From Nemertoderma westbladi (taxonomy: Eukaryota; Animalia; Xenacoelomorpha), in the NCBI GenBank assembly GCA_032718475.1, contig JAUCBJ010000251.1, positions 1 through 64,000 of the forward strand: a stretch of 64,000 nucleotides of DNA, written 5' to 3'. The notes below the pieces were generated by a model. The model had not been told where the DNA came from and ran no database searches. It saw nothing but the letters and a program-made list of their open reading frames with translations. The position numbers were made by a program, and so were the translations under genes. This document shows positions 13,573 through 64,000 of this stretch, piece by piece. The first letter of the stretch is position 1. Each line of letters starts with the position of its first letter.

Positions 13573-13762
13573 TCTGGATTCAATGCTAAACATTATACAG
13601 TGCAATACAATACGTCTGCGATATATAATTACTCAATATTAATATCACCCTATCATATCACTAGACTGGTGAATAAACATAATACAATTACTTATTTTTC
13701 TTTAAAACAATACTAAAATTTAAGACTATTTTGTTGTCAATGATCACGTTTCCTATTCCAAT

Positions 13763-31644: not shown

Positions 31645-33150
31645 TATTAAGCGAGCTTAGCATACAGGTACCACTAACTCAATCGGTGTGTCTGTTGATC
31701 TGTCGATCTGTTGTTCTGTCGTGTCCAATTTTAAACGTTAATAACTATATAAACTATATAATAAATGTTAATGAAATTTAACCAAACTTGGTACATGTAC
31801 AATGTAGTCTGGCCAAAGTTTAGAAATTTTCCAAGTTGAATTTTCGCGTGGCCTTCGAGAAGCTAAGATAATAGCACTTAATTAGTTAATTAAGTTGATT
31901 ACGGTAACAACATCAATTTCAACCTGCCTCCTTAAAGGATATTAATTTTTTCTAGTATAAGATTTAAATAATTATACTTAAAAGTTATACAGCTGTAATC
32001 CCCATACAACATTCCATTATAGTTTTTAATTAGTTCAAGTGATTTGCTTTAATAAATGTGTCTTTAATTGATCTAAACGTAATTAAAGCGGCGCAATTAT
32101 TGAGTACAAATTTAATCCTTCCCATTATTGGTCAACATAGTCTCTGCGGGGGTGTAGAGCTGCTAGCTGGCATGGAGATGTTTGTGTAGCCTTACCAGGG
32201 CAGAGGGGAATTGTACTGTAATAGGCAGCCAGTAGTATTGCTATAGCAACACAGACATAACTCCAACCACACTGCCTGTATTTCAATTCCTATTGACTCT
32301 ATACTATAAATGTTGTATTACCTACTATCTCAGGTGACAGAAGATTTAATGACATAAGTACTCATGGCTGTTGTAGGCTTATATCTGAAATAGTTTATTC
32401 CGCAATATATTTGTCTGGTTATTTTTTAATTGAATTTTTGCAAAGTAGTAAAATTAATGTTCTTAAAAATAATATTATTATTTTTTATGTAACCTAGGAA
32501 ATTAACTACATAATATCGCTGCAGCTTTAAGAGTGTACACTGATTTAATATTATTTCAATACCCATATTACTACATCGGCATACGATGCGTTGGCGTTGT
32601 ATCACACATCTCCACATAGATGTATCAGCAGTTACTCGCACAGTTTCGAAACTTCGCATAGATATAACTGTATGAAGATCGTCAGTCTTGGTTTAGGAAA
32701 AATATTTTAATGCAAAACAGGACGAGCGACGAGCGCAACGAGGCATATAATGAAGATCAATACTGCGTAGACTATATTCCTATAAACCATACCTGGCTTC
32801 GCCTATTGAAGGCATCGGTAGTTATAAAGATCGTCCGTCAGTCTGGGTTTAGGAAAAATGTTTAAATACAAAACAGGACGAGCACAACGACGTTTATAAT
32901 AATAAAGACGAGTACTGCCTACAGCGTTGAAGGCATCGGTAGTTATAAATTACTGGTGGGTGGGAAAGGTGGGGGGGGGGGGGGGGGGGGTGCAGATTAA
33001 AAGGGGTGAACACGTACTGTCCCCCTTTCTTTGATTGATTGGTGGTGTGGGTAAATTTCTCAAAACCTGATTTTGTGATACAGTCGCTCAATTTTAATCT
33101 GTATCTGATAACTGAACCTCGTCCTGCGCGATGGCCCCACGAACGTGTTA
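31645..33150 (+). mobile_element. Helentron/DINE-1-like non-autonomous element, copy 1
   Basis: About 1.5-kb collinear match to 52307-53933; 5' ctgtcg microsatellite and 3' GC-rich stem-loop. Confidence 0.75.
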
Positions 33151-39690: not shown

Positions 39691-39924
39691 TATACATTAA
39701 AATAGTTTTGAAAGGAATATTTGAATCGATTTTTTTTTACTCAAGTAGTAATTATTAGTAGGCCTACACAGTGTATCGAAAAGCTATAAACAATTTATTA
39801 AATAGCCTACTACAATTGGATGATAATACTGTAAACAGGCATATTCTTAATTGGTATTATGACATATTATTGTTCTACAACATTGATATTTATATTAAAT
39901 TTTTTAACTTTTTGGGACACTATT

Positions 39925-41058
39925 ATGGCCAACACAACAAATGCTACAACAGCGAGTAGATTGTATTGGTTTGAAAACGTTACCGATGCAGAAGCTAAAC
40001 CAATATTTGATTCATATGCATCATTTCGAAGTACGATCCAACAATATACAAACCCAATTATCCTTCCCTACTCAGCAATTTACACAATATTCGGAATAAT
40101 TGGATATATTCTAACATTTATTGTCGTTGCCAAGGAAACCAAATTGAATACGTTATTCTACAAGTTGCTTTGTTTGGATGGCGTTACTGAAATATTTGCA
40201 ATGGTTGTTGAGTTTGTGAAAATTCTTAGAAATGGTGATTATTTGTGCTTAGCAGCCCCACAACCAATTGCAGGTTATATTAACTGTAGTACGTCATTCT
40301 TTGCCTTCTTGGCCGCATACCATTGGCCCCTTCTTCGCATTGGTCAAGATTTATCATGCTGGACCGCTATTATGATATCTTTAGATCGTGTATTTGCAGT
40401 CTATCGACCCATAAAATATAAATCTATCAGTCAATATCAATATAAAATATTATGTTTGTCTGCGGGAGTTTTGATCGGAGCAGCGATAATTATCATCATG
40501 GCATTTATCGGTGAATACGATATACACATGAATACAAATATGACAGCTTGGAATTCTTTTAAAATGGATTTAGAGGGATTCCAAAAAATATATTACAAGG
40601 GAATCGTTCATTATTACATTCCGGGTAAACAATTTATCCATTTACTTGTTATAGTTTCTCTGGCTATTGCAGTAGTTATTAAAGTTAAGAAAATATCAAA
40701 AGGTCACCAACAGAATAAGGAAAGATTAGAAAAAGATCGTAGTCTTATTTACATGATGGTACTAATTACCTTTATGACATCTCTCAAGCTATTGGTTTTG
40801 GATATTTACTTCTTGATGAATAACCTCGGTTTATTTCCAGCTTCTCGAAAATTTAACACAGCTGCAGCCTCTTTAAAAGATATCATTAGTTACTATTGGT
40901 GGGCTAAATGCATTACGATATGTTTATTGGTTAATGAAGTCATAACTATTGTTTATGCATTAAATTTTTACGTTATGATGTTATTTGTTGGCAGTTGGAG
41001 GCAAGCTGTTTGTAACATACTCATCGCTCCTATAAAACGATTAGTAACATTTAACTGA
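39925..41058 (+). CDS. Intronless class A (rhodopsin-like) 7TM GPCR, divergent peptide-receptor/chemoreceptor type
   Basis: Seven hydrophobic segments; ISLDRVFAVYRPIKY at TM3; NFYVMML in TM7; N-terminal N-glycosylation sites (NTT, NAT, NVT). Likely start ATG 39925. Confidence 0.88.
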   Translation: MANTTNATTASRLYWFENVTDAEAKPIFDSYASFRSTIQQYTNPIILPYSAIYTIFGIIGYILTFIVVAKETKLNTLFYKLLCLDGVTEIFAMVVEFVKILRNGDYLCLAAPQPIAGYINCSTSFFAFLAAYHWPLLRIGQDLSCWTAIMISLDRVFAVYRPIKYKSISQYQYKILCLSAGVLIGAAIIIIMAFIGEYDIHMNTNMTAWNSFKMDLEGFQKIYYKGIVHYYIPGKQFIHLLVIVSLAIAVVIKVKKISKGHQQNKERLEKDRSLIYMMVLITFMTSLKLLVLDIYFLMNNLGLFPASRKFNTAAASLKDIISYYWWAKCITICLLVNEVITIVYALNFYVMMLFVGSWRQAVCNILIAPIKRLVTFN

Positions 41059-44582: not shown

Positions 44583-46430
44583 TGATGGTGGTTACTGTTC
44601 TCGTATCTGTGGTGATAATGGTTACTGTTATCGTATCTGTGGTGATAATGGTTACTGTTCTCGTATCTGTGGTGGTTACTGTTCTTGCTATCTGTGGTGG
44701 ATACTGTTCTTACTATCTATGGTGGTTACTGTTCTCGCTATCTATGGTGATAATGGTTACTGTTATCGTATCTGTGGTGATAATGGTTACTGTTCTCGTA
44801 TCTGTGGTTGTAACTGTTCTCGTACCTGTGGTGGTAACTGTTCTCGCTATCTGTGGTGGTTACTGTTCTTTCTCTCTGTGGTGGTAACTGTTCTCGCTAT
44901 CTGTGGTGGTTACTGTTCTTTCTATCTGTGGTGGTAACTGTTCTCGCTATCTGTGGTGGTTACTGTTCTTTCTATCTGTGGTGGTAACTGTTCTCGCTAT
45001 CTGTGGTGGTTACTGTTCTTTCTATCTGTGGTGGTAACTGTTCTCGCTATCTGTGGTGGTTACTGTTCTTTCTATCTGTGGTTGTAACTGTTCTCGCTAT
45101 CTGTGGTGATAACTGTTCTCGCTATCTGTGGTGGAGACTGTTCTCGCTATCTGTGGTGGTTGCTGTTCTCGCTATCTGTGGTGGTTACTGTTCTCGTACC
45201 TGTGGTGGTAACTGTTCTCGCTATCTGTGGTGGTTACTGTTCTTTCTATCTGTGGTGGTTACTGTTCTCGCTATCTGTGGTGGTTACTGTTCTTTCTATC
45301 TGTGGTGGTAACTGTTCTCGCTATCTGTGGTGGTTACTGTTCTTTCTATCTGTGGTGGTGACTGTTCTCGCTATCTGTGGTGGTTACTGTTCTTTCTATC
45401 TGTGGTGGTAACTGTTCTCGCTATCTGTGGTGGTTACTGTTCTTTCTATCTGTGGTGGTTACTGTTCTTTCTCTCTGTGGTGGTTACTGATCTCGCTATC
45501 TGTGGTGGTTACTGTTCTCGTACCTGTGGTGGTAATTGTTCTCGCTATCTGTGGTGGTTACTGTTCTTTCTATCTGTGGTGGTTACTGTTCTCGCTATCT
45601 GTGGTGGTTACTGTTCTTTCTATCTGTGGTGGTAACTGTTCTCGCTATCTGTGGTGGTTACTGTTCTTTCTATCTGTGGTGGTGACTGTTCTCGCTATCT
45701 GTGGTGGTTACTGTTCTTTCTATCTGTGGTGGTAACTGTTCTCGCTATCTGTGGTGGTTGCTGTTCTCGCTATCTGTGGTGGTTACTGTTCTCGTACCTG
45801 TGGTGGTAACTGTTCTCGCTATCTGTGGTGGTTACTGTTCTTTCTATCTGTGGTGGTTACTGTTCTCGCTATCTGTGGTGGTTACTGTTCTTTCTATCTG
45901 TGGTGGTAACTGTTCTCGCTATCTGTGGTGGTTACTGTTCTTTCTATCTGTGGTGGTGACTGTTCTCGCTATCTGTGGTGGTTACTGTTCTTTCTATCTG
46001 TGGTGGTAACTGTTCTCGCTATCTGTGGTGGTTACTGTTCTTTCTATCTGTGGTGGTTACTGTTCTTTCTCTCTGTGGTGGTTACTGTTCTCGCTATCTG
46101 TGGTGGTTACTGTTCTCGTACCTGTGGTGGTAACTGTTCTCGCTATCTGTGGTGGTTACTGTTCTTTCTATCTGTGGTGGTTACTGTTCTCGCTATCTGT
46201 GGTGGTTACTGTTCTTTCTATCTGTGGTGGTAACTGTTCTCGCTATCTGTGGTGGTTACTGTTCTTTCTATCTGTGGTGGTGACTGTTCTCGCTATCTGT
46301 GGTGGTTACTGTTCTTTCTATCTGTGGTGGTAACTGTTCTCGCTATCTGTGGTGGTTACTGTTCTTTCTATCTGTGGTGGTTACTGTTCTTTCTATCTGT
46401 GGTGGTTACTTTTCTCGCTATCAGTGGCGG
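44583..46430. repeat. 25-bp satellite array (about 70+ units) with higher-order structure
   Basis: ctatctgtggtggt(t/a)actgttct(cg/tt) repeated. Confidence 0.97.
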
Positions 46431-46499
46431 TTTAAAAAGTGTAGATGTGCAAATAAAAAGCGTGAAATATGCCATTTTAAAAAAATTAACTTTTGTATC

Positions 46500-47270
46500 A
46501 GGCAATTCAAGTGTAGTATTATGTGTAGAAATATATTAATGTTTTATAATAAATGTATAATTATATGTAGTAATTTTGAATAATAGTGTAGTAATTATTA
46601 AGTAATTAAACAATACTAAGGATGATCCAACTAGTGTAGTAATATATTAATGTTTCTGTGTAGTAATTTTGAATAATAGTGTAGTAAAATATAAATGTTT
46701 TATAATAAAAATACGTAAAATTATGTGTAGTATTGCTTATAGTAATATATTAAGGATATATAATAAATGTATAATTATGTGTAGTAATTTTGAATTATAG
46801 TGTAGTAATATATTATTGTTTTTGAGTTATAATAAATGTATAATTATGAGTAGTAATTTTGAATAATAGTGCATTAAAATATAAATGTTTTAAATAAAAA
46901 TATGTAAAATTATGTGTAGTATTACTTATAGTAATATATTAAGGATATATAATAAATGTATAATTATATCAATAGAAATTTTGAGTAATTTATGTGTAGT
47001 AGTAATATATTATTAATGTAATATAATAAAAATAAAATATATATGTATAATTATAATTATGTGTAGTAATTTATGTGTTATAATCTATGTGAAGCAATAT
47101 ATTTATGTCAATACCCCCCAACAAATATATATAATTACGTGAGATATTATGTGTGGTAATATATTAATGTTATGTAATAAAAAATGACATATATCTATAA
47201 AATGAACAAATGAAAATCTCTAAGAAATTGTATTATAATACATATTATTATAACGATTATTATAATAAAT
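46500..47270. repeat. Extremely AT-rich array of degenerate gtgtagtaat repeats with an about 180-bp duplication
   Basis: tagtaattttgaataatagtg...aaaattatgtgtagtatt.cttatagtaatatattaaggatatataataaatgtataattat occurs at about 46660 and 46850. Confidence 0.75.
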
Positions 47271-48007
47271 AAGAGTTCACTATAGTATATCATATATCAT
47301 CGCTAATATATAATCTTTGTTGGTTGTACCACGCATACGCTAGTCACGCTGTACTGCGCGCTATCTATTATACTGAACGTTTTTACGATTATTGATTACA
47401 CAACTCAATGATTCTTATTTCATCCCCCCCCCCCCCCCCCGCAATCAATTGTACACGTATTTCCATCAACCAACCACATTTAAGATATTTTCTTATTCGC
47501 TGTTTAAGTCTGCTGTCTATGCCACATATTCTAACTTGCATTTGTTCCTAAGGACCACCCTCTTTACAACGATAAAAATAAATCAAGACTCTATTACTGT
47601 AAAGAGGGTGATCTTTAGGGAACAATTGAAAGTTAGTACTAAAAAACGGTGTCAATTTATTACAGCGATACAGTTTAAAATTTTTATCACTTGTAATTTC
47701 ATGGTAATAAATTGACTCCATATATAATTTTTTTAGTTCTCAGTCTGAAATTGTTGTAATTCTTTAGTTATTTCCTTGTTATCCTTATAATTTAATGATA
47801 ACATTAAAATTACTAAGGAAATATCACAATTTAGATCCAACTATGGGGTCAATTGATTACAGCGATACGGTTTAAAATTTATCACTTGTAATATTTTTTG
47901 TATTTATTTATTATTATGGCTTTAACATAAAAAATAGCTGGAAATTTACTTACAATAAATATACTTGCACTGTCATTCACAGCAAGTATTTTATTGTCAA
48001 TTCTCAG

Positions 48008-48978
48008 GATGACAACGAAACAATCTGTTTTTCTCATCAAGATACCCGCTATTTGCTGGACATTCTAGAAACAACAAACAATCAACATAAATCCAGACCA
48101 CCAATTATACCAGGTAGGATATATCCCACTCTTCGTTTTGCGCGAGGAAATTTGAATATATCGATCAATCCCACATCGGGTGATGTTTACATTCAGAAAC
48201 ATGGCAAATGTAAACTTCTAAACAAAGCTTTTACCGAAGTTCTCATTCAATACAGGGGGAAATTATTGCAATTTCTCTCTCTCATCCGCTAGAGATTATT
48301 GGCAATCAGTTTTACATTGAATTATCAAATCCAGAGTTTATTGGATTTGTAACAGCTTTTAAAGGAACCAACTATGTCGGCTTATGGTAAATCACCCTCA
48401 GATATGTTGATAGTGTAGGTTTTAGTTATTATACGGGTTTCAATTTGACAAATCAGGAACTAACCGCTTTGTTGAATGAGTGGGATACGCAAATCAATGA
48501 AACAAACAAGCATCTTTTTGAAGATTTTAAAAATATCATTCAACTATGAGACCGTCTCAAAATGATTAAATCTGATAAAAAAATTATTATTACCAACACC
48601 GATAATCCTACAGAAGTGGGAGCAGCCAGAAATTCTATTGAGATGCATTACTTGAATGATAAAGCCCATATTAGATTTCTCAAAGAAGCAATGGATGGTG
48701 TTTCTCTTACTGAGGCTAATGTGGATGGTTTTGTCATTTTGGATAAACCTAAAGCATTCGTTGAGATTCCATCACCAAAACCAGATGTTGAAGAGAGTTG
48801 TTCTCAACCGCAACATGTCTTTCCTGAAATATTACCACGGAAGCCGAGATCGTCAAGTAAATTAACCAACGCAACAGCTGCAAAGAAACAGAAAGTTGTT
48901 GTTACCTCATTTCCAGTATATGAGGCTAATAACTTTACTTCGAAACCTGAGTTCATGCCTGGATACCCTTATTGGTGA
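48008..48978 (+). pseudogene. PC4/Sub1-like ssDNA-binding protein gene, decayed (frameshift near 48290, two stops)
   Basis: Hand translation FIGFVTAFKGTNYVGLW*...YYTGFNLTNQELTALLNEWDTQINE resembles the PC4 core; it reads in frame into ORF 48562-48978 (basic AKKQK tail). Confidence 0.5.
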
Positions 48979-49106
48979 TTGGCAATTGATTTAAAGTTAT
49001 TTCGCTCGGTAGCATATAAATGTTTAGATATAGTCAATAACATTTCATTTTATTTTAATCTTTTGTGATATTTTATTATTATTATATAATCTAAACAAAC
49101 TTCAAC

Positions 49107-52100
49107 ATGGATAAAATAGTATTGTGTTGTTCATTCTGTCATATGAATATAACTAGACATAATTATTTACGATGCCTAAAGTCACATTTTGAAGTTTATT
49201 CTTGTTTTAATTGTCATGTTACGACTTCATGCAGTGAAATTTGTAAACGACATGAATCAACTATGGGTTGTAAAGAAATGAAGTTTCGCACCTATCAATT
49301 GACTTGTCCTACTTGTAATAAAGGATATTCATCTGAGAATTATTTACCTCACGACTGTCACTTGAAATGTTAATACACAAGAAAGCATAAATCACCGCAA
49401 CATAAGAATATAATATCTAGAAAAAACTTAAGACTGGTTCTTGGCACATGTGCAACAATTTTTACATGGGAACAAGCCGCTCACGATAATCGTCTTGAAA
49501 TTTATGTCCACGACCTCCCAACTTCTAGAGATTCAGTTAATATTAGACAGATTGAAAGAAATGAATGTTCTTAGACTGTGGTTAGGTCTAAATGAATTAA
49601 TGTACAGAACACATTTTTCAGAAGGTGAGCAATTAGAAACCTTTTATTTTAATTCTTCCAGTGGTGCTATTAATACTGTAGATTCATCATCAGAAAGTTT
49701 TGATATTTGGTTTGAGTATATATGTTTTAGAAAATATATTACAAAAAATAGACATGTTTAACATACGTGGTTCAGGGTGGCGCATTAAATCTTTATTAAG
49801 AGTTGAAATTAAATTAGCTGATTCTAAGTGTAGGTCGTTACTATATAAGGGACATGGATATATGGAATTACCTAAGGTTCTATCGAGTAAACGATGTACA
49901 ATATATATACAAACGGCTGATAATGACTGTTTCAAATGGGCTATTATAACTGCAAAATTTAGTAGCAAAGTGAAAAACTACAAAAACCATTCTTCGTCGT
50001 ACAAAAATTATATGAGTCATTTCATTTTTGACAACGGGAAAAATGATTATCCAACAGAGTGGCAGCTAGCGATTAAACTTTTTGAAAAACAAAATTCTAA
50101 ATATATAATTAATTTACTATGTTGGAATAACAACAATAAACGGACCCCCGTATCTATATTAAGACAACCTCTGTTTAGTAAAATTACACCAGATAAAGAG
50201 TTATTAAATATATTACTTATAGTAAAAAATAACAATGTACCTAAACTGAATCATTATGTTTGCATAACTAACTTGAATCGATTGCTGAATACGAGAGCTC
50301 TTCATATCCACAATAGCCAATATTGTGAACGATGTTTAGGGCATTTTTTTCGAATGGAAGTTCTCCAACGACACCGTCTCGCCTGCTACCAAGGAAGAAG
50401 TCAACGAGAGAAACTACCTAATAAAAAAAGAACACACATAAGTTTTACAAATTTAGATAGAACCTTATCCCCATTGTTTGTCACCTACTTTGATATAGAA
50501 TGTATCTTACAACCCTCAGTTAATAATCAATTTATACAGGAGCATATACCGTGTGCTGTGAGTTATTTAATTGTTCCCAATAGTGAATTAATTGATCCTC
50601 CAAAATGTCATTTGAAAACATTCGTATAGTCAAATAATAATAATAATTGTATTCAAGATTTCTTAGATTCATTAAATTCAAGAATAGATTAAAGAAGATT
50701 CAAGAAATACACGGATTGGGATATAAAGGTTATACCGAGAAATACAGAACGATATATTTCACTGAGCGCATTTATCCCAATTAAAAACACTTCTAAAAAA
50801 AATTGAGTTATGTGTCTTAGACACATATCAATTTTTAAGCTTTTCCCTAAGTAATTTAGTTGAGTGTTCAACAAAAGATGTAGCGAGTCATGATATAAGC
50901 TCAATTTTACCTATTACTCTACAAGAAATGAAATATTTTTATCCAAACTTGAATAACTCAACAATTAATCGGAAAGGAGTATTTCCAAACAAGTACTTGA
51001 CAAATATAAATAAATTTAATGATACAGGTTTGCCATCTATAAATAATTTTTTTAGTAACTTAAGTCAAAAAACATGTACAATTGAAGATTATAGGTTTGA
51101 TGGATTATCATGGGTAGAATTCGACTGTGTGAATCTCAAAGATTATCTTTTAGCCTATTTAAAACTCAATGTTTGTTTGCTTGCCGATATATTTGAGAAT
51201 TTTAGGAATGTTTGTAAACAAAATTATGATTTAGAAGTGGTTTTTTACTGTAGTATCGCATCATTTACCTATGATTGCGCTCTAAAATATAATAAATGTA
51301 AAATAGAATTAATAAAGGATTAGCAGACATACAGAGATTTTGAAAAATCAATTAGGGGTGGTGTTTCATTTTGTCGAAAGCATTATATAGAATCAAATAT
51401 ACCCGAAACAAGCACATATGATTCTACTAAGGAAGAATGCCATATTTTTAATATTGATTTCAACTCTTTATATTCTGGGAATTTAAGTAAAAAACTACCC
51501 ACCTCATAATTCAAAGAAGTAAGTATTAAACATTTAGAGAATGCAATTCCAGAAAAACTAATCGAGTACTTGGTAGATTTAGTCAATGACGGATCTACTG
51601 GATATTTTTTAATATGTGATTTAAATTACCCCAAAGCTATTCACGATCAAACATTACAATTACTGTTAGCCCCAGAGGATTTAAGTATAAATGAATCAAT
51701 GCTTTCACCTTATATGAGGGAACAATTTAATAACTTATCGATACAAAGAGGCACCACCGGTAAATATAAGATGTCTACTCCAAAACTCTTGCTGACACAA
51801 TTTGATAAAGAATTTTATCATTTACACTTAGAAACTGTTAAAATTTTATATAAAACAAGGATTAATTGTTACTAAACTACATAAATTATATTCTTTTCAA
51901 CAAGAATTTATATTTAAAAATTACATAGATTTTAACATTAATCAAAGGCGACTAGCAAAAAGTTACATTGAAACGGCTGTCGCAAAGCTGCTTAATAACT
52001 CTTTATTTGGTAAGTCAATAGAAAAGATACGGGACCGATGTAACTTTCGTATCGCAAATAGCAATGATAAATGCGACCAATTGGTGAATCGTATTAATCA

Positions 52101-54463
52101 TGAACAATTTATAATATACAATAATACATTATCGGGTCATTTATTAGTGAAAGACTCAGTAACTCTCGATAAGCCTATATTTATTGGTAGCGCGGTGTTG
52201 GATTTGGCTAAACTTGATATGTATGAACTGTATTACAATAGATTACTACCTATTGAGAAAGAATTAAACTGCCGTATTGAAATTGCTGCATCAGATACAG
52301 ACTCATTAATAGGTTGTGGGGCGAGCCACGAAGTGAGTGAGCCTTAGCGTAGTGGTACCATTAATCAACCTGTCGTTCTGTCGTTCTGTCGTTCTGTCGT
52401 TCTGTCGCGTTCAATTTTAAACGTTAATAACTCGGCCAATCTTTTATGAAATCTATCCAAACTTGGTACACATGTTGTTTTGCAAAAGTTTATAAATTTT
52501 CCAAGTAGAATTTCCGTGTGGCCTTCGAGAAGCTAAGATAATAGCAGTTAATTAGTTAATTAAGTTGATTATGGTAAAAACACCATTTTCAACCTGCCTT
52601 TTAAAGGAAATTAATTGTTTTACAGTATAAGATTTAAATAATTATACTTAAAAATTATACAGATGTAATCCACATACGCCATTCTATTATAGTTTTAATT
52701 AGTTCAAGTGATTTGCTTTAATAATTGTGTCCTTAATTGATCTAAAGTATTTAAAATGGCGTAAAAAATTGATTCTCATTAAATACTGCTCATTTATTGG
52801 CCAACATGCTGGTACATAGATGGAAGGATGTGTGTTAAGGCAGCCAGTTGCTGGGAATGATTATTGGTCAAGTCTCTGCTGGTGTGGACTAGCTGGGAGT
52901 TGTGGCTGTAGACTAACCAGAGAGGAATTGTAATAGGCAACCAGTATTGCTATTCCAGCCCAGACAGCATTCTTTAAATCCAACATCCCAACATTGACTC
53001 TACTATAAGTGTTGTATTGCTATCTCAGGTAAATGACAGATATAATAACATAAATACCATCCATGGCATGGCTGTTGTAGGCTTCTGAAATAGTTTATTC
53101 CACAATGTATATGTCTGGTTATTTTTTAATTGAATTTTTGCAAAGTAGTAAAATTAATGTTCTTAAAAATAATATTATTATTTTATATGTAACCTGGGAA
53201 ATTAGCTACATTTTTTCGCTGCAGCTTTAAGAGTGTACATTGATTTAATATTATTTCAATACCCATATTACTACATCGGCATAAGATGCATTGGCGTTGT
53301 ATCACACATCTCCACATATCACACATCTCCACATAGATGTATCAACAGTTACTCGCACAGTTTCGAAACTTCGCATAGTTATAACTGTATAAAGATCGTC
53401 AGTCTGCGTTTAGGAAAAATATTTTATGACAAAACAGGACAAGCGACGAGCGCAACGAGGCATATAATGAAGACGAGTACTGCGTTGACTAAATTATTAT
53501 ATAAACCACCTGGCTTCACATATTGATCGCATCCCTAGTTATTATTATTATAAAGATCGTCCTAGCCTGCGTTTAAGAAATATATTTAAATACAAAACAG
53601 GACGAACGCAAAGAGGCTTATAATGAAAACGAGTACTGCGTTTATTATATTCCTATAAACCACCTGGCTTTGCATATTTAACATGCGATTGGAAATAAGT
53701 TCGTGCTACCCTTCCGTGGGTGGTAGATGTCGCGGTTATGTATTGGTGGTTGGGAAGGGTGGGGGGGGGGGGGGAGAGATTAAAAGGGGTGAACACATAC
53801 TGTCCCCCTTTCTTTGATTGATTGGCGGTGTGGGTAAATTTCTCAAAACCTGATTTTGTGATACAGTCACTCAATTTTAATTTGTATCTAATAACTGGGC
53901 CTCGTGCTGCGCGAAGGCCCCACGAACGAGTTATTATAATACATCGCAGAGTAATTTTTAAAAGCATTAATTAAAAATAATATTTTAGATATATCCAATT
54001 ACCCTCAGGATCACCTGCTTTATAGTAATAAAAATAAATCGAGACTTTATTACTGTAAATATGAACTAGCCTCACGTGAAATTAAACAAGCAGTATTTTT
54101 AAGACCAAAATTATATTCAATTTTGGAATGGAATAACAGAAATATTCGCAGAGCAAAAGGTATTACAAGAGCTGTTGTGGAAACGAATATTACTCATGAA
54201 GAATATTTAAAAGCATATAACTCAAATGAAGAAATAAAAAAAAAAACATACACAGATTTCAATCTAAATTACATCGTATTTATACCTTAAAGCAAAATAA
54301 ATTTGCACTCAGTAGCTTTGATGATAAACTTTATTGGCTTAATAAAAATCAATCACTTCCTTGAGGACACTATAAAACAAACCTCAAAAAACCTATAAAA
54401 ATATCAAATATACCAATTTATGAAGAACCGAAAGATGATGGTGAATTATCAAATAGTAAATAA
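49107..54463 (+). pseudogene. Protein-primed DNA polymerase B (Polinton/Maverick/adintovirus type) with N-terminal C2H2 Zn fingers; disrupted
   Basis: GSGW, GYMELP, DNDCFKWAI, HYVCITNLNRLL, YCERCLGHF, YFDIEC (ExoI), IKVIPRNTERYIS, RKGVFP, LLADIFENFR, SIRGGVS, DFNSLY (motif A), KLLNNSLFGK (motif B), SDTDSL (motif C), LRPKLYS, RAKGI, LSSFDDK. Confidence 0.93.
52307..53933 (+). mobile_element. Helentron/DINE-1-like non-autonomous element, copy 2, inserted just after the polymerase DTDS motif
   Basis: (ctgtcgtt)n near the 5' end, subterminal inverted gtggggc/gccccac, 3' stem-loop gggcctcgtgc..gcgaaggccc; polymerase sequence resumes after it. Confidence 0.8.
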
Positions 54464-54941
54464 AAATATAAGTTGTAAGCAGATCATTTCTGGACTTAAT
54501 TTAAAAGAATTAAAAAATCAATTGACAGGTAAAATTATACTCAAACCTAATCAGTTTATATATAAGGTATTTGGTGCAACCTTATTAATGTTTACAAATG
54601 GACAAATAACAATTCTTGGTAGAAAATATAATTTTAATAAAGTTAAAAAGCATATATTTGAAAAAACAAACATTAATTTGATTTTTAAATCTATCAATTT
54701 GTGTACTTATATTTTTAGTATTGACACCGTAATCTATAGGTTACTTATAAACAATATCGGGTTTTATGTTATATTTGATAATGTTAAACTAGAAATTTCA
54801 TATGAGCCAGAAATATTCAATAACTGTAAAGTCAGAATAAATAATATTGTTGTTATTTGCTGTTTCTACACCGGTAAATGTACATTAATGTGTTCTCCGT
54901 TTAAATTTCAAATATATATTATCCTATATTCAACAAACTGA
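54435..54941 (+). CDS. Divergent TATA-box-binding-protein-like ORF
   Basis: Two TBP-like half repeats: IVN...LNLKEL...ATLLMFTNGQITILG and SYEPEIF...VICCFYTGKCTL; about 168 aa, the size of a TBP core. Confidence 0.72.
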   Translation: MMVNYQIVNKNISCKQIISGLNLKELKNQLTGKIILKPNQFIYKVFGATLLMFTNGQITILGRKYNFNKVKKHIFEKTNINLIFKSINLCTYIFSIDTVIYRLLINNIGFYVIFDNVKLEISYEPEIFNNCKVRINNIVVICCFYTGKCTLMCSPFKFQIYIILYSTN

Positions 54942-55977
54942 TTAATAATTTATTATTGTTTGGTGGAGGGTTTTTGATGTAAAATATAATTAGAAAGAGT
55001 GAAATTTATTGTTGTTGTTTGGTGGTGGAGATTTTTTACTGTAAAATATATATATATTAAATTGAGGGAGAAGAAATTTATGAATATTTTTTAAATCAAC
55101 AACTAGTTGGGGAAACTAACTAACTTCAGCAGAGCGATTGCTTGTAACAGCCTAGTATGCATAGTATACCCAGAGACAGTAGCTAGCTAGCTAAGCATCG
55201 CACGAGTGAGCTACAGTTGCGCACGCATCTGTTACTTATGACTGTGTGCAGCGAGCATCGCTAAGCTCGTTGAGAAAAGTTTAGGGCTATGTACTGGTAT
55301 TCATAGTCAAAGTCGAAGCCCTCCTATCTGTTACTAGCCCGTATACATATTATTAAAACATCGGCTATGCATTTCCCTACATTCAGAATAGAATAGAATA
55401 GAATAGAATAATGAACAGAGCATATATCACTAATCCGCATGGGAAAAGTTTATGTTAGGCATTTTGTTAACTATGTGAATTTTGTAATGTAAACATCTGC
55501 GACCCTCTACAAAAATATATATAAACTCAATTTTTCTAACAGTGAACTATAATTTTGTTAACCAAAATAAGAAAAAAAAAATACCGGTATACTCTAGCCT
55601 ATACTATACTATATTATAATCATAACCAACCTGTAACAGTAAAATGACAGCAAGTGTGACAAGTTGTTCTATGAAATTCGATCTTGAAGCTGGTGATGTA
55701 TACCTTCAAGCGGCAAATATAGTCGACATTAGTAGGTCAGTCAGTCAGTTAGTCAGTATCGATAAATCTCTCTCATTACCGGTACCATTTATAAATTGGT
55801 TGCTGTTGCGGTTGTGGTTATGAATGTGTCACAACAACATCATTATCATCTTCTTCCCATGGGTTGTTTGGGGGTAACATTGGATTTGTTATACCATCCT
55901 CCCAATTTTCTTGAGAAATTATACCGGTATCGCATGTATGAATTTCGCTATCGCCGGGTTGAATTCTCACATTTAAT

Positions 55978-58175
55978 GTGAAATTTTTCATTGTTTTAAA
56001 ATCCATTATTTCGTTTCCTCTTAAAATTAATACCGGCTTACCTGGAAACGTAACCACTGACAGTAGATCCATTGCAAATATTCTAAACAAACATTTCTCT
56101 ACCATTGGACCCCAATTAGCTGAGCAAATTCCGAAAACTAATAGAAATCCAACACGCTTCATAAAAAATTGTAATTACAAATCGTTTTGTTTAATAGAAC
56201 CATGTGAGACCGAAATTCTCTATTTTTTACTTGATACAGACAACCACGTTTCAACATATGATGAATTTCCGGTCTACCTGGTAAAATTAGCAGCTCATAC
56301 GATAGCCCCCCACTTAACTCATTTAATTCAATTATCCGTCATAAATGGTTTTTTTCCAGATTTACTTAAAATTGCAAAAATAATCCCAGTTTTTAAAACT
56401 GGCGATCCCACGGATAAAAATAATTACCGCCCCATTTCGATATTACCGCCTTTCACTAAAATATACGAGCGTGTTATCAACTCTCAACTACTGGCATATC
56501 TAAACAAGTTCGATTTACTTTCCCCTGCACAACACGGATTCCGAAAACATATAACGACTACAGATGCTATACTAACAGTTACGGAACAAATACAGGAAAC
56601 ACTAGACAACCAGAGCTCCGCCTGCTTAGTTTCAGTAGATCTCAAGAAAGCATTCGATACCTTAGATCACTCCATATTACTGCAAAAATTAGAATGTTAT
56701 GGTATACGCGGCCTCCCACTTAAATTGTTAGCCAGTTTCCTTGACAACCGATCACAAGTAGTTAATATTAACGGTTTTAATTCAGACTCCGTTAAGTACA
56801 CCCTGTGGAACCCCACAGGGTGGAATATTATCACCGCTTCTATTTTTAATTTATATTAATGATTTACCGAACTGCACAAAATTAATATCAACACTTTTTG
56901 CGGATGACACTACACTACTATTCTGCCACAAAAATACAAACACACTTATTTCTACAGTTAACACGGAATTACAGAAACTAGACAGCTGGTTAACAGACAA
57001 CAAACTATCTTTAAACTTAAAGAAAACGGAATATATCATCTTTGACAATCACAACACCACTACCACAATTCCCACAGTCAACATCCGTTCTATACCATTA
57101 ACGAAAACAACATCAACTAAATTCTTAGGAGTCTACATCGATAACCATGTAAATTGGATGGTTCACTGTAAATATATTTTGTCAAAAATCTCGAAACTAA
57201 CCGGCATCTTCTATAAATTACGTCATATACTACCACTTTATATACTTAGAACCCTATATTTTGCACTCGTACACCCACACATTCTTTACGGTATTATACT
57301 TTGGGGTAACAGCTACAATTCCTACACTAATAAAATTAAAATAAAATTAAATAAGATACTCCGAGCAATAACGTTTAGCCACTTCCAATCCCATGCACCC
57401 CCGATATATAAATCCTTAAAAGTTTTGCCACTAGATAAACTATTTGAGCTGGAAGTTGCGAAATTTATGTTTGATGTTAAAAAATGCAATAAAACAGACG
57501 CACTAATAAATATGTTCAAACCAATATCTGCAGTCCATCGGTATAATACTCGTTCGGCATTAACTCAAAAATTTTTCATCCCCCGTGTCCGATTACAAAT
57601 ATCCCAACAATCAATAAAATTCTCTGGCCCAAAAATATGGAACGATCTACCCCAGGAAATAAAAAATTCGAAGTCCAGAAAATCCTTAGCTACTACGTTA
57701 AAAAAATATTATCTAGATAATATATAATGTTATAACAATAAAGTATTTATAGAATCTTATCCGGCAAGTCAAGTCAGTTTCCCCACCACCAGTACATCAA
57801 CAACACGTTTTCATGATATCTCATTAAAATTAAACAAATTCACGCTGAAAATTTATTCTACCGAGTATCCCCCGCACCCCCCCCCCCCCCCCCCCCACCC
57901 CCGCACCCCCCCCCCCCCCAATCACCAGATAATATGTGTACAATTTATTTAGCACATAACGGGTGCCAAACTAGCTTCGCTACGGCAATCCGCTGGTGCA
58001 ATTCAATTTATATCATTCAAACTTATCCTGTTGTAATAATATCTGTATATTGTGTATTGATAAAAGACATTGTATTGTTAATCGTGATAATTGTAAGTAT
58101 AATATTGTATTGTCATCATAATATTGTCTGCTGTGAGATTAAATAAAGGGCCGGGCCTTCCCGGATTGAAATTGA
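55978..58175 (+). mobile_element. 5'-truncated CR1/L2-clade LINE (RT, frameshift near 56800)
   Basis: KIAKIIPVFKTGD...NYRPISILPPFTKIYE, QHGFRK, DLKKAFDT, GTPQGGILSPLLFLIYINDL, LFADDT, KFLGVYID, YGIILWG, HRYNTR, GPKIWNDLP; stop at 57727; (ttgaaa) tail. Confidence 0.92.
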
Positions 58176-58565: not shown

Positions 58566-60572
58566 TTATTCTGATTCGTAGTCTGAACTTGAATCATTTG
58601 TGGACATTATTTTGATTTTTTGTTTAGCCTCTTTAGCTGCTAAACGCTGAGGTCGTTCCATTGTTTTGATATCAGTCGGGGAAGCAGCTGGTTTTGGTGT
58701 AACATTCGCCGCTGTTATTTCACTCTCTTTAGCCGTAATTTCTAAAGGGTATAATCGTTTAACTGGTCTGGTTGTCCGCCCTTTATTGGTTCTAATGGTA
58801 ACGTAACGAGTCTGGCCGTCGTTTCCAGGATGAAGTTCTAGAACCTTGGCTAATCTCCACTGTAGTCGAGGGGTGTGTTTGCTTCCTTCCACAAGAACAA
58901 TGTCACCCTCTTTTACTTGGGGTCCCTTTTTCTCGTTCCATCTATGCTGTTCACGTAATGCCAATAAATACTCGGCAGACCAACGATTTCTGAAATCCCG
59001 CAATATCTTCTGTAAACGGTTTAGACGATCGTTTATATTGGAGGTATTAATATAATCAGGATCCAAAAGATCGCCAATATCTGGATTACTGTCCGGAATA
59101 TCAGTTAACCTATAACCACATAGTAATTGAGATGGTGTAATTGGTAGTAGGTCTTTGATATCGGAAGATACATAGGTTAGAGGTCTGTCATTGAGTATCG
59201 CCTCAACCCCTATAAGAAACGTTCTGAGTTCGCTAATAGTAAGTAACGCCTTTCCAATTACGCGTTTTATTGTAAGTTTTGTACAACGAATCATCCTTTC
59301 CCACATACCGCCCATCCAAGGGCTGGCCTTAGGAATAAGATCCCATTTTAACCGCTTTTCCAGCAGGTAGTCGCGAACCATAGGATCTTGTTGAATATTT
59401 AGTAGAATTTGTCTGGAAGAAGTGAAGGTGGTTGAATTATCACTTATTAGAATGGATGGGTAACCTCTTCTTCCAACAAAGGAACGGAAGGCTAAAAGAA
59501 ATTCCAATGTTGAATTATCGAGAACCAATTCAAGATGAATAGCTCTGGAAACAGTGCATGTAAATAGGGCAATATAAACCTTGAATACTTCTCCATTTTG
59601 TTTTGCTGCTAAACTTCCTGTATAATCAACACCTACAGCTGAGAAAGGACGTTGAAATTGGACTCTGTAGTTAGGAAGTGGAGGAGGTAATGGAGACGCG
59701 TAAGGTTTACCTTGAATCCTAAGGCATTGTTCACATTTGCGAATCATAATTTTCACGCGTTGTCTACTAGATGGTATCCACCATCTTTGTCGAAGATATG
59801 CAACAGTACTAGACGTACCCTCATGACCATTCCTACTGTGAGCATCTCGGATAATAAGATCTGTAAGATAGTGTTTCTTCGGTAATAATATGGGCTGCTT
59901 GGAATTCCAATCCAAATCAGCATTGGATAATCTCCCATTGCTCTTTATAATATCGTCACTTAGAAATAACTGTAACTGTCTTACAAGAGTTGGAGTGTTA
60001 AATTTATTTTTGCTCAACAAAAATTCGATTTCCTCCCCAAAACTTTCCCGCTGAACTTTACGAATCCACCAATGCTCAGCTGTTTTGATGTCTTTCACTA
60101 ACAAATATGGCTTCTGTTTGGTAATTCTCGTATCAGAATTACTATGCATAAGAATGCTGCCAACTTGTTGATGTTTTAATAAAATACTTTTTCGAATGTT
60201 GTCGATGTATTTCAAAATCCATGCAGTTACCTTCAACAGACGACTGTAACTGCTAAATAATTCCAAATTTATTGCTACTGGTTCAACTTCCGGAGGGTTA
60301 GAAGATTCTCCAACTCCGCATACTACATCAACATCATTGTCCATAGTCTTGCATTGGAGAGACAACACCTTCTGTTGTGGCCAACTGGAATGATTCATTA
60401 ACCATGGCGGACCGTGCCACCACTGGTCAGAAGATAACAAATTGTTAGCTGTTGTCCCCCTTGAAATAAGATCAGCTGGATTTTCAATCCCTTTAACATG
60501 AAATACCTTTGCCTCAAACTCAGAGATAATATGATTACATTCTGTTACCCTCGCCTGTACAAAAGAATTCAA
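58566..60572 (-). CDS. BEL/Pao pol, RNase H tail and integrase portion
   Basis: NPADLISRG, HSRNGH...CEQC, PFSAVGVDYTG, RAIHLELV, SDNSTTF, SPWMGGMWERMI, LNDRPL, GRTTRPVKRLYPLE. Confidence 0.9.
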   Translation of the reverse strand: MNSFVQARVTECNHIISEFEAKVFHVKGIENPADLISRGTTANNLLSSDQWWHGPPWLMNHSSWPQQKVLSLQCKTMDNDVDVVCGVGESSNPPEVEPVAINLELFSSYSRLLKVTAWILKYIDNIRKSILLKHQQVGSILMHSNSDTRITKQKPYLLVKDIKTAEHWWIRKVQRESFGEEIEFLLSKNKFNTPTLVRQLQLFLSDDIIKSNGRLSNADLDWNSKQPILLPKKHYLTDLIIRDAHSRNGHEGTSSTVAYLRQRWWIPSSRQRVKIMIRKCEQCLRIQGKPYASPLPPPLPNYRVQFQRPFSAVGVDYTGSLAAKQNGEVFKVYIALFTCTVSRAIHLELVLDNSTLEFLLAFRSFVGRRGYPSILISDNSTTFTSSRQILLNIQQDPMVRDYLLEKRLKWDLIPKASPWMGGMWERMIRCTKLTIKRVIGKALLTISELRTFLIGVEAILNDRPLTYVSSDIKDLLPITPSQLLCGYRLTDIPDSNPDIGDLLDPDYINTSNINDRLNRLQKILRDFRNRWSAEYLLALREQHRWNEKKGPQVKEGDIVLVEGSKHTPRLQWRLAKVLELHPGNDGQTRYVTIRTNKGRTTRPVKRLYPLEITAKESEITAANVTPKPAASPTDIKTMERPQRLAAKEAKQKIKIMSTNDSSSDYESE

Positions 60573-60623
60573 GGGTTTTAAAGATAAAAGCCAGCGTTGA
60601 GATATCTCGCTATCAGTACAAAG

Positions 60624-62936
60624 TTAAAACTTTGGTAATAATCGCATGTGTCCATAAACATTGGATACATATGATAATAACCGCAATCCTAAGTTAAGTG
60701 CTGTTAGTTCCATTTGCGACAAAGTTAATGACTCCATAGATGATTTTATCGACTTTTCAATTAAAGCTTGTTTCTTTATAGGAACCACTTTCGATTTCGA
60801 TATGACTAATTCCGGTTTATGAATATCATCGACAATATAAATAACGGAACCATAGGCTTTACTTGAAGCATCTGTAAAAGCATGAAATGAAGACTGAGGC
60901 GAAACCGAAAGCAATTGGCGTTTAATATTGCAATTAAAAATTGCGTGAAGATCGTTGGAAATTATTTCCCATTCATCCCTGAAACTGCCGTGTAGATTTT
61001 CGTCCCACATAACCTTTGCTTTCCATAGCCCTTGAATAAAAATTCTCGATTTTATTCCAATAGGACCAAAAATTCCGAGAGGATCGAAATACTGTGCAAC
61101 ATGGCTAACTATGATACGTTTTGTTAATACATCCGATTTCATAAATGGATGAGATTTGAATTCTAGAATGTCTTGCGAAAAATTACATTTCAATCCAAGG
61201 AACTTTATGACTGGTTTAGAATGTTTCGGAGTATCACCATTGTCTATTATGACCTTTGATAATTTGGGACTGTTAGTGACCCATTCTCTTAGAGGTAGAT
61301 TAGCATCGGTAAATATTCTCTTACAGTCATAATAGTATTGAATTAGATTGGTTTCAGAGTCAAATGTTCCCTGTAAGTTATCAATATATAAATTTCTCAA
61401 AATCTCATCTATTATGGGATGAGAATAATTGTTTAAATGTTCACGAATTGTTGCACCCAAAAGGTAAGAACTACAAGTCGCACCAAAAAGGACAACCATG
61501 AAACGATAAGTGTTGAATTTACTTTTTGGATCGATAGGATTTGCAGGCCACAAAAACCGGGTAACATCTCTATCAGTTTCATTTAGGCGAATCTGTAAAA
61601 ATGCATTTTCAATGTCTGCAACAACTGCAAATGAACCAGTACGAAATTGCAAAATGCACGAAATAATGTTCGGTGTAAAACAGGGACCGCTGTATAAACA
61701 ATCATTCAAACTAGCACATTTTGGACCAGCTTTTGCAGAACAGTCATAAACTATACGCAATGGAGTTGTAGTTGATTCTGGTTTAGCTACACCATGGTGT
61801 GCTAAATAATGTACTTTATCAGGTAAAATATTATTATCACACGGAACCAGTTCAATAAATTTACGTTGCAATTGGTCTGTAATAATATTATTGTAAACTG
61901 AAAGTAGTTTCGGTGTCTTACGTAATTTAGCCAAGGTACTTGCTAATCTACGTAATGCTAAATTATAGTTTGATGATAATTTCGGATGATTTGGACGCCA
62001 TGGAAGTCCTACACAATATCTACCATCAACGAATTGTAAAGATTTAATAAAGTTTGTATGCACATACTCATCTATAGGACGATTGATATTTTCTGTACTT
62101 ATACCGATACTGTCTAAATCCCACAATCTACTCAACATGTTATCTAGTTTGGTTTCACTATCATTATCTACATTATAATTTGCACCAATGGAAATTAAAC
62201 ACATAGTGGTTGTGTTTACCGTAGTGCTAGTATTCACACTAGAATATGGAATTCTACCTGCGATGACATCACCTAGCACAGATGGTACGCAATATAAACC
62301 ACTAGATAATTGCTGTGCGGGTACAAATTCAAAATAATAATCAATGCCAATAATAATCCCGATATCTCTTAAATCATCACCAATAATTGGATCGGCCAAT
62401 AGTAATCCTTTAATATCTGCCCCTTTCAAACTACGTGTGCGACCAGGTATAAAAAAGCGTGGAGGTAATCTATCTACTATAAGCGCACGGACTTCTATAT
62501 CTCCTACCTTTGTGGATACTACAAATTGCACAATATCATACCATTCTAATTTACCGTCAGTATTAATGCCATCAATACCAGTACATTTTTTACCCACTAT
62601 AGGTAGTTTGAGCAACGCAGCTAAATCTCTTTTAATTAGACTACGTTGGGAGCCGGTATCTAATAAACTTCTATGTTTACTAGTAGTTTTATTTTCACAT
62701 ATTATAGGCATATATGTTGTTGGTATAAGAGAAGCATATTTATCGTCATTAGTTATTACACTTATCTTATTAGTAGCTACAGTAGAAGATACAACTTGTG
62801 GATCAGAATCTGAATTAACAGTTTCGTTTGATGTCGCAACATTACACGTATAATTTTGTTTGTCACTAGAATGATTTTGAGATCCTTTTACCTCGGTTGT
62901 AATTGCTGGAAGAATTACCTTTAGAATGGTGATCAA
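60624..62936 (-). CDS. BEL/Pao pol, protease, RT and RNase H portion
   Basis: LLDTGSQ, GRYCVGLPW, SLNDCLYSGP, DRDVTRFLW, FGATCSSYLL, FDPLG, FTDAS. Confidence 0.9.
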   Translation of the reverse strand: MITILKVILPAITTEVKGSQNHSSDKQNYTCNVATSNETVNSDSDPQVVSSTVATNKISVITNDDKYASLIPTTYMPIICENKTTSKHRSLLDTGSQRSLIKRDLAALLKLPIVGKKCTGIDGINTDGKLEWYDIVQFVVSTKVGDIEVRALIVDRLPPRFFIPGRTRSLKGADIKGLLLADPIIGDDLRDIGIIIGIDYYFEFVPAQQLSSGLYCVPSVLGDVIAGRIPYSSVNTSTTVNTTTMCLISIGANYNVDNDSETKLDNMLSRLWDLDSIGISTENINRPIDEYVHTNFIKSLQFVDGRYCVGLPWRPNHPKLSSNYNLALRRLASTLAKLRKTPKLLSVYNNIITDQLQRKFIELVPCDNNILPDKVHYLAHHGVAKPESTTTPLRIVYDCSAKAGPKCASLNDCLYSGPCFTPNIISCILQFRTGSFAVVADIENAFLQIRLNETDRDVTRFLWPANPIDPKSKFNTYRFMVVLFGATCSSYLLGATIREHLNNYSHPIIDEILRNLYIDNLQGTFDSETNLIQYYYDCKRIFTDANLPLREWVTNSPKLSKVIIDNGDTPKHSKPVIKFLGLKCNFSQDILEFKSHPFMKSDVLTKRIIVSHVAQYFDPLGIFGPIGIKSRIFIQGLWKAKVMWDENLHGSFRDEWEIISNDLHAIFNCNIKRQLLSVSPQSSFHAFTDASSKAYGSVIYIVDDIHKPELVISKSKVVPIKKQALIEKSIKSSMESLTLSQMELTALNLGLRLLSYVSNVYGHMRLLPKF

Positions 62937-64000
62937 AGTTACTACTTTTAGTACTTTGATCTAAATGTAATAACGTGTGATGTTTTTTGCGACATACAGA
63001 ACATACACCAGAACTAGGACAAATCTCACCATTTGCATGTTTACGAAAACAATTTCTGCACAAATGTAATTGTTTAGTACGCATAAACTTATCATAGGGC
63101 AAAATATATTTATCACAATTACGCACTACATGATTACCTTGACATAAGTAACATTTAAAGGCCGGTTTCTGTTACTCACACTTTGAGCTACGGGTATTGA
63201 TGTTGCAGTGCCACCGTGACGCAGCGCAACACTTTACTATTAGAGCAGATTATCTCGTCATCAGAATCTGCGTTGGCGCGTAACTGTTCAATTTCTTTCT
63301 GCAAGGCAGCGCGCAATGAATCCAGCTGCCAATATGTGCAATTGGCAGCTCTGTTAATGTTGTTCCGCACATCAGCAGGCAGCTTACGCATTAACAATGC
63401 GGCGTAAACGTAGCCGGCCGCATCGACGTCAGCGCCCAAATTCTTTAGAGCCCGTAAATGCGACTCGTACGAAGCCCGAAAGGTTGATAAACCTTGAACA
63501 GTTCCTGCAGGTTAATCCATGTCGAAAAACGCATGTAACCGAGCCTGTACCAGTGACTCAGTATTCCCGTAAGTTTCAATTAATAGTTTGACAGCATCTG
63601 CATAATCAGAGTCTGTTCGATGAAAACCGCCTAATAATTCGGACGCTTGGTCACTAAGACAACCGGTTAGGTAATTAAATTTCGTGGCATTACCAAGATC
63701 AGTTCGATCGTGAACAGCGTCACGAAAACGATCCCAGAATTCGGACCACTCGAACACCTTACCTGAAAATTGTGGCAAGTTGAGGTTGGGTAGTTTATAC
63801 TGTTTCGTTGGAGTTAGCTGATACCCGCCATGGCTGTTGTTTGGGTTTGTAAATATGGCACCATGCTGTCCATAACCACCAACGTCATCAATAACGGAAG
63901 ATGTATTCGTAGCACCTACAGCAACCAGTTGTGCTGTTTGGAGCAGTTTTGCGATGTTTTCGTCATAGCGACTGACTTCATCGTCCCCGGTTTCTGTCAC

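Follow-up and report, generated by a model that had tools for sequence, protein, structure and literature searches.

A divergent TBP-like gene on a multicopy element with a Polinton-type DNA polymerase

The element and its surroundings

The window, that is the whole 64,000-nucleotide stretch of DNA that was analysed, consists of animal-like, repeat-rich DNA with a GPCR-type ORF and LINE and Bel/Pao-like retroelements, the retroelement labels having been given by eye. It also holds an element, at most ~6–8 kb in extent as seen, in which an ORF resembling the TATA-binding protein (TBP) follows a broken DNA polymerase gene. The following features were identified in the element and at its left flank.

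46500..47270 (unstranded): AT-rich (17% GC) degenerate repeats, of single-locus depth (including the bin 46721-47041) and outside the multicopy family
47520..47900 (unstranded): rearranged left edge, folding as ssDNA into three stacked hairpins (z=-7.45)
47912..48549 (+): broken ORF, PC4-like by eye only, with a frame change near 48274 and a stop at 48388
48550..48978 (+): open frame of 142 codons, acidic and then basic/proline-rich, of no family
49107..49373 (+): Cys/His-rich ORF of 88 aa, zinc-finger-like by eye, with no Pfam family over the cut-off
49374..49702 (+): broken coding-like stretch, possibly the N-terminal region of the polymerase, with no database match
49703..52314 (+): 5' part of a protein-primed family B DNA polymerase (PF03175, tblastn), with stops at 50627, 50690, 51321 and 51507 and frame changes near 50770 and 51830
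52315..53929 (unstranded): insertion of host repeats splitting the polymerase, the joint of 52315 to 53930 being seen in 4/4 runs
53930..54463 (+): 3' part of the polymerase, with a frame change near 54240 and a stop at 54362
54435..54941 (+): TBP-like ORF of 168 aa in two lobes (Pfam, profiles, alignments, copy comparison)
54905..54982 (+): segment in another frame resembling the final TBP helix by eye, with a length difference in other copies
55067..55730 (unstranded): non-coding right arm, sharing the depth signature of the family and likely part of the element

The polymerase scored 26.2 bits against PF03175 (cut-off 25.8) and is 27–44% identical, in pieces, to Polinton-type polymerases, over a span of 49703–54382, while full-length relatives aligned by tblastn over residues 253–1307 with E-values down to 3e-57. 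On these similarities it is classed as an Alpha / Polinton group 2 type, protein-primed polymerase. It carries eight lesions (5 stops and 3 frame changes) in ~1021 codons, in addition to the 1.6-kb insertion, which is absent from other copies and partly repeated at 31656–33150. On the same strand, the TBP-like ORF starts within the last codons of the polymerase. Pfam searches with pieces of the broken N-terminal region gave no match. By eye, the stretch 47912–48549 contains one or two segments resembling PC4, and its tblastn match at E 1.0 is the PC4 protein of one of the related polymerase loci (L061); it passed no test for PC4, there being no Pfam match, a best Atlas value of 0.77 (for the first part) and nothing better by tblastn.

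The left edge of the element is rearranged. The first of its hairpins is made up of a duplicate of polymerase sequence 54003–54059 and the mirror image of that duplicate, and a 50-nt duplication is also present (47648–47697/47845–47892). The structure at 47520–47900 looks like the outcome of template switching. Because the left edge consists of hairpins, one of them built on duplicated polymerase sequence, this copy may be truncated at its left end. No left arm matching 55067–55730 was found, nor any inverted match between left and right that would represent terminal inverted repeats in this copy, whose left end is rearranged. Directly after the TBP stop, and within the high-depth part, lies a 39-nt direct repeat (77%; 54950–54988 and 55012–55050), which may serve as a terminator, an origin or a binding site.

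A search of the window at E<=1e-4 with 2761 ORFs taken from 95 related polymerase loci, many of these ORFs being integrases, gave no integrase, packaging ATPase, capsid or protease. As the left end of this copy is rearranged, other copies may carry such genes. A Pfam search of 17 ORF pieces of the element (E<=1), which is possibly truncated, gave no match to TFIIB. Words of the TATAAA type occur nine times in the element against 12 expected, that is without enrichment and without a shared promoter box, and chance would account for the TATAAAA at 54394.

Elsewhere in the window, a very regular tandem array occupies 44649–46432. Its 25-nt unit is present 71 times, a higher-order period of 324 nt is superimposed, and one strand has a strong T/G bias. 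An uninterrupted 972-codon RecQ helicase frame (13724–16639, +; DEAD, Helicase_C, RecQ Zn, RQC and HRDC domains) lies in a GC-richer stretch and is intronless and perhaps mobile. There are also an intronless 7TM receptor ORF (39835–41055, +) and an ICMT-family methyltransferase ORF (350–1120, −). To the right of the element are a LINE-type reverse transcriptase remnant (55963–57727, +) and an LTR retroelement (58566–63511, −) that is Bel/Pao-like and has long open frames, both labelled by eye.

Homology and conserved residues of the TBP-like protein

The 168-codon frame at 54435–54941 (+) contains the motifs YEPEIF, FTNGQ and FYTGK on which the first-pass annotation had based its comparison with TBP. 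A random sequence of the same composition would stay open over this interval with P ~5e-8, and the remaining five frames have 9–26 stops each; it is not a chance frame. Its likeness to TBP was likewise beyond chance. The ORF matched the Pfam TBP family (PF00352) in two stretches at 27.6 bits, against a curated cut-off of 22.9, and a profile built from 75 archaeal TBPs, which had been collected by a motif scan, aligned its residues 13–149 across both repeats at 17.9 bits. With the same profile, no score above 8.9 bits was obtained from 5000 shuffles, of which 4693 were scored, the reversed protein had 3.2 bits, and among all frames of the window the ORF was the sole match. Comparison with 43 TBP-like sequences using hhalign gave a probability of 92% (E 5.7e-7) over 113 columns and residues 20–148.

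Other searches pointed in the same direction. The top matches of a PDB sequence search were full-length ones to a microsporidian TBP, with a weak E-value of 0.08, and TBP clusters made up 29 of the 30 Atlas matches (up to 0.95), with a recognition value of 1714 that is under the level counted strong. Identity is 20–37% to archaeal TBPs and 26–29% to two eukaryote-like TBPs, and blastp detected no self-similarity between the two halves of the protein. Structure prediction, which had been proposed as a check, gave a divided result. With a model guided by a TBP alignment (pLDDT 65), Foldseek gave 44 matches at E<=0.001, of which every one listed contains TBP, and the model superposed on TBP with Z 9.6 and an rmsd of 4.4 over 155 aligned residues; this agreement is circular and no independent support, because the model was built on the TBP alignment. 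The single-sequence model (pLDDT 30), on the other hand, matched nothing at E<=0.001. Judged from the profile matches, the ORF is a real, two-lobed and highly divergent TBP homologue.

Closer relatives were not detected. None of 47 candidates from 5.8 billion proteins was confirmed, 1.84 billion representatives yielded none, and none of 27 stretches in viral contigs was confirmed. The search of phages found no relative, that of plasmids gave a single chance match (E 5), and in an alignment-based profile search the 120 matches listed were all canonical TBPs, most of them archaeal. By these comparisons the TBP lineage of this ORF is without a detectable sequence relative in the collections searched.

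All four DNA-intercalating phenylalanines, the residues that the earlier annotation had singled out for checking, are kept: F41, F53, F128 and F144 align with the conserved Phe of TBP by profile, hhalign and alignments, the MAFFT alignment misplacing the first of them. These four Phe are described as DNA-intercalating, and as required in the herpesviral TBP mimic KSHV ORF24, in PMC12529657. G56, G62 and G147 are also kept, as is the acidic C-terminal stirrup (E124 and E126), whose two residues would correspond to positions C.L3.2 and C.L3.4 of PMC7221094. According to that source, the two stirrup Glu are the TFIIB contact and variable in viral TBPs. It also describes the DNA-binding Phe as kept in viral TBPs, for which a role at viral promoters is proposed. 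Two residues of TBP have been lost: N129 stands in place of the Pro that follows the third Phe, and C153 in place of the last Gly. As for the base-contacting Asn, N9 and N88 would fit when judged by eye, whereas other residues occupy these positions in the MAFFT and hmmalign alignments.

Copies of the element and selection on the TBP-like protein

The stretch is present, in whole or in part, in 5/7 public runs, and contigs were compared for four runs from three samples, so that the copies were seen through short contigs. In run X1 the summed contig depth, which is not a copy number, was 11,000–63,000 over 47684–52177 and 54104–55066, the TBP ORF included. In X2, single unbranched contigs inside the ORF had depths of 10,833 and 11,383, with the flank at 55–60 (~190 times). 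The left flank and the AT-rich repeats had contig depths of 55–92. The TBP-like ORF and the polymerase are co-amplified as parts of one high-copy family. Because depth exceeds 10,000 in the ORF and is 55–92 in the repeats at 46500–47270, the former belongs to this family and the latter do not. The description of the gene as an element-borne, highly divergent TBP is therefore upheld by the depth signature of the family, the overlap with the polymerase and the TBP profile matches, whereas the earlier suggestion that the AT-rich repeats belong to the element and are a target of its TBP is not supported, their depth (~55–92) being that of a single locus and not common to the family.

The ratio of depth in X3 to that in X1, two runs with one sample label, was 2.0–11.5 in element bins over 47363–55708, ~1.2 in single-locus DNA and 0.4–1.0 where the insertion consists of host repeats, a mixed bin having 1.55, with no evident link to GC content. 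Possible reasons for the excess are extrachromosomal replication, a different individual or library, and fragmented contigs. The element is taken to reach ~55730 because this depth signature extends that far. Run X5, guessed to be RNA and bearing another organism label, contributed four low-depth contigs on the stretch, which were not counted as expression.

The copy in the window is itself a dead, interrupted integrant. Contigs of other copies span the insertion joint in 4/4 runs and are without two of the polymerase stops, so the insertion and these two stops are private to this copy. The first-pass annotation had drawn attention to a TBP frame that was still open while its polymerase neighbour was riddled with stops. 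The frame is open and the polymerase is broken, but the contrast is not significant. At the lesion rate of the polymerase, 1.3 lesions are expected in 168 codons, with P(0)=0.27 and P(at most 1)=0.62, so that the accompanying caveat that short length may explain the open frame was right. In addition, runs X1, X2 and X3 show a length difference at 54910 between this copy and the contigs of others; because of this difference, and of residues resembling the last helix in another frame, this copy probably has one lesion near 54910 that leaves the last ~10 codons of 54435–54941 out of frame. Since P(0) is 0.27 and one lesion is likely near the end of the ORF, the open TBP frame beside a broken polymerase is evidence of nothing; the frame is nearly intact by chance.

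Among 23 best-supported differences in the polymerase, drawn from the best 40 of ~640 rows, 16 are non-synonymous, four synonymous and two on stops (one at a frame change was excluded), as expected of neutral decay. The TBP ORF has 29 substitutions relative to other copies at a listing threshold of 5 in 100, comprising 18 synonymous and 11 non-synonymous changes and no stops; 20 of the 29 fall at third positions, none at the four Phe, and the one difference in the E124/E126 stirrup is acidic-to-acidic. The synonymous excess has a P of 4e-7 to 1e-4 and omega is 0.14–0.23, depending on the transition bias assumed, omega being a count of contig sites rather than tree-based and two sites lying inside the polymerase overlap. 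Because the differences among copies are mostly synonymous (18/29), this count shows that the element family diverged under selection on the TBP-like protein.

Possible roles and comparison with known TBPs

The reading that we favour, and regard as probable, is that the ORF encodes the TBP of a multicopy Polinton/adintovirus-type element, whose product would bind and bend the promoters of the element and recruit host TFIIB and RNA polymerase II. The retained phenylalanines suggest that the element TBP would bind and bend AT-rich promoter DNA of the element. Its acidic stirrup (E124/E126) would then be presented to TFIIB, which would be that of the host as far as this copy shows, and host RNA polymerase II would be brought to the element's own genes rather than to host genes. 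Redirection of host transcription, as first suggested, is plausible and is the best reading. Against a role as a promoter factor are the argument in PMC7221094 that most viral TBPs use viral TFIIB, none having been detected here, as well as the absence of a shared promoter box and of late (virion) genes in the window that could be switched on. The loss of the Pro after the third Phe and of the last Gly, and the inconsistent placement of the Asn, would also speak against it.

A bolder version, which we think unlikely, is that the element is a complete replicon of ~6–8 kb, capsid-less and integrase-less, that amplifies outside the chromosomes and has its promoters served by a stand-alone TBP and host TFIIB. 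The gene set proposed for it comprises an ssDNA-binding protein, a zinc finger, the protein-primed polymerase and the TBP. Hints in this direction are that all genes lie on one strand with overlaps, that X2 has ~190 times the depth of the flank and that the element is 2–11 times deeper in X3 than in X1. If true, no smaller genome that encodes a TATA-binding protein of its own would be known.

Host factors assist the start of replication at adenovirus origins. It is conceivable, if improbable, that the TBP fold has here been co-opted for replication, binding and bending AT-rich termini or hairpins and aiding the protein-primed polymerase to start. The overlap of the TBP gene with the end of the polymerase on the same strand, the strong hairpins at the left edge, the retention of the DNA-bending Phe and the failure to find virion genes or a shared promoter box would all suit such a role. 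However, the hairpins, which include part of the polymerase sequence, seem to have arisen by rearrangement in this copy, and the acidic stirrup, the TFIIB-contact site in PMC7221094, stays acidic among copies. Furthermore, with TBP at 0/95 related polymerase loci, this polymerase class does not need a TBP. No TBP was found in the 284 of 363 accessory ORFs beside related polymerases that were scanned against Pfam (the other 79 being for the most part pieces of polymerase, loci nearly identical to others and the smallest ORFs), in a TBP profile search of all 2761 ORFs of the 95 loci (E<0.1), or in the two of 15 whole records of related polymerases that were covered. These searches indicate that TBP is not general in this class of polymerase.

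With a similarly low probability, the protein could be directed against the host, competing for TATA boxes or soaking up TFIIB or TBP regulators and so dampening host transcription without serving element promoters. The retention of the DNA face and the acidic stirrup in a protein otherwise only 20–37% identical to archaeal and 26–29% to two eukaryote-like TBPs would suit such a decoy, as would the failure to find a promoter box in the element, but a general host shut-off would presumably be of little gain to an integrating, high-copy element. That the ORF is a functionless passenger, whether a degenerate host TBP/TRF copy or a chance match beside the polymerase, is highly improbable: the decay of this copy would fit, as would the failure to find a sequence relative among 5.8 billion proteins and among 1.84 billion representatives, but this is largely refuted by the synonymous excess among copies, the co-amplification and overlap with the polymerase, the shuffle control and the retention of four Phe at an overall identity of 20–37%.

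If the favoured reading of an element TBP acting at element promoters holds, its binding site would define those promoters and show whether host TFIIB is called in. A selected, bare TBP core with intact DNA-bending residues would offer a handle on the timing of Polinton genes in animal cells, and a lineage without a detectable sequence relative widens the range of viral TBPs. This significance is tempered by the fact that TBP has been annotated on adinto-like elements before and that this copy is dead.

Compared with cellular TBP/TRF, the protein has the same two-lobe layout, YEPExF stirrup and two F-x-x-G-K/Q strands, but it is only 20–37% identical, has lost a Pro and one Gly and is borne by a mobile element. 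Its nearest Atlas clusters and BFVD folds are Nucleocytoviricota/mirusvirus-type TBPs. Nucleocytoviricota and mirusviruses usually carry their own RNA polymerase; no RNA polymerase was found beside the element TBP, and to our knowledge Polintons have none. The TBPs of these viruses, including poxvirus VITF-3, are likewise described (PMC7221094 and PMC12917281) as single chains of two lobes with the Phe kept and the surface diverged. PMC7221094 reports TBP-like genes from 107 viral genomes, and most viral genomes bearing a TBP also have a viral TFIIB; Nucleocytoviricota and mirusviruses mostly have a TFIIB homologue, whereas none was found in this element of at most ~6–8 kb as seen. When viral contigs were scanned with a motif, 23 loci were obtained, and the profile recognised TBP-like proteins at 12 of these. 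In ten viral contigs (L099, L102, L104-L106, L108, L111, L114, L117 and L118) the encoded proteins are 550–880 aa long and have an N-terminal TBP-like domain (profile E-values of 6e-16 to 4e-8) joined to repeats of the unit 'GFYVxPG..G.P.FY'.

The beta/gamma-herpesvirus TBP mimics (KSHV ORF24, EBV BcRF1 and CMV UL87) are also TBP-like factors with the four Phe kept, encoded by genomes without an RNA polymerase (PMC12529657). According to the same source, ORF24 is large and multidomain, is without the acidic TFIIB-contact residues and needs its Pro, whereas the element TBP is a bare core of 170–180 aa that has kept the acidic residues and lost the Pro.

A further comparison is with the Polintons/Mavericks (adintoviruses) that have an Alpha-type PolB. 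They share the PF03175-type polymerase (27–44% identical), and the present element too is multicopy and integrated in an animal-like genome, but the integrase, ATPase, capsid, protease and terminal inverted repeats were not found in this copy. In a search with most subscription journals outside its range, no study of Polinton TBPs was found beyond a figure legend in PMC8502044 and its preprint. That legend (Starrett et al., 2021; Fig. 5) lists TBP among the genes of elements with an adintovirus-like PolB (MELD). Going by this legend, a TBP on such an element is less unprecedented than the first-pass annotation had implied. The element TBP is a real, distant and previously unseen example of the kind of gene already annotated on adinto-like elements.
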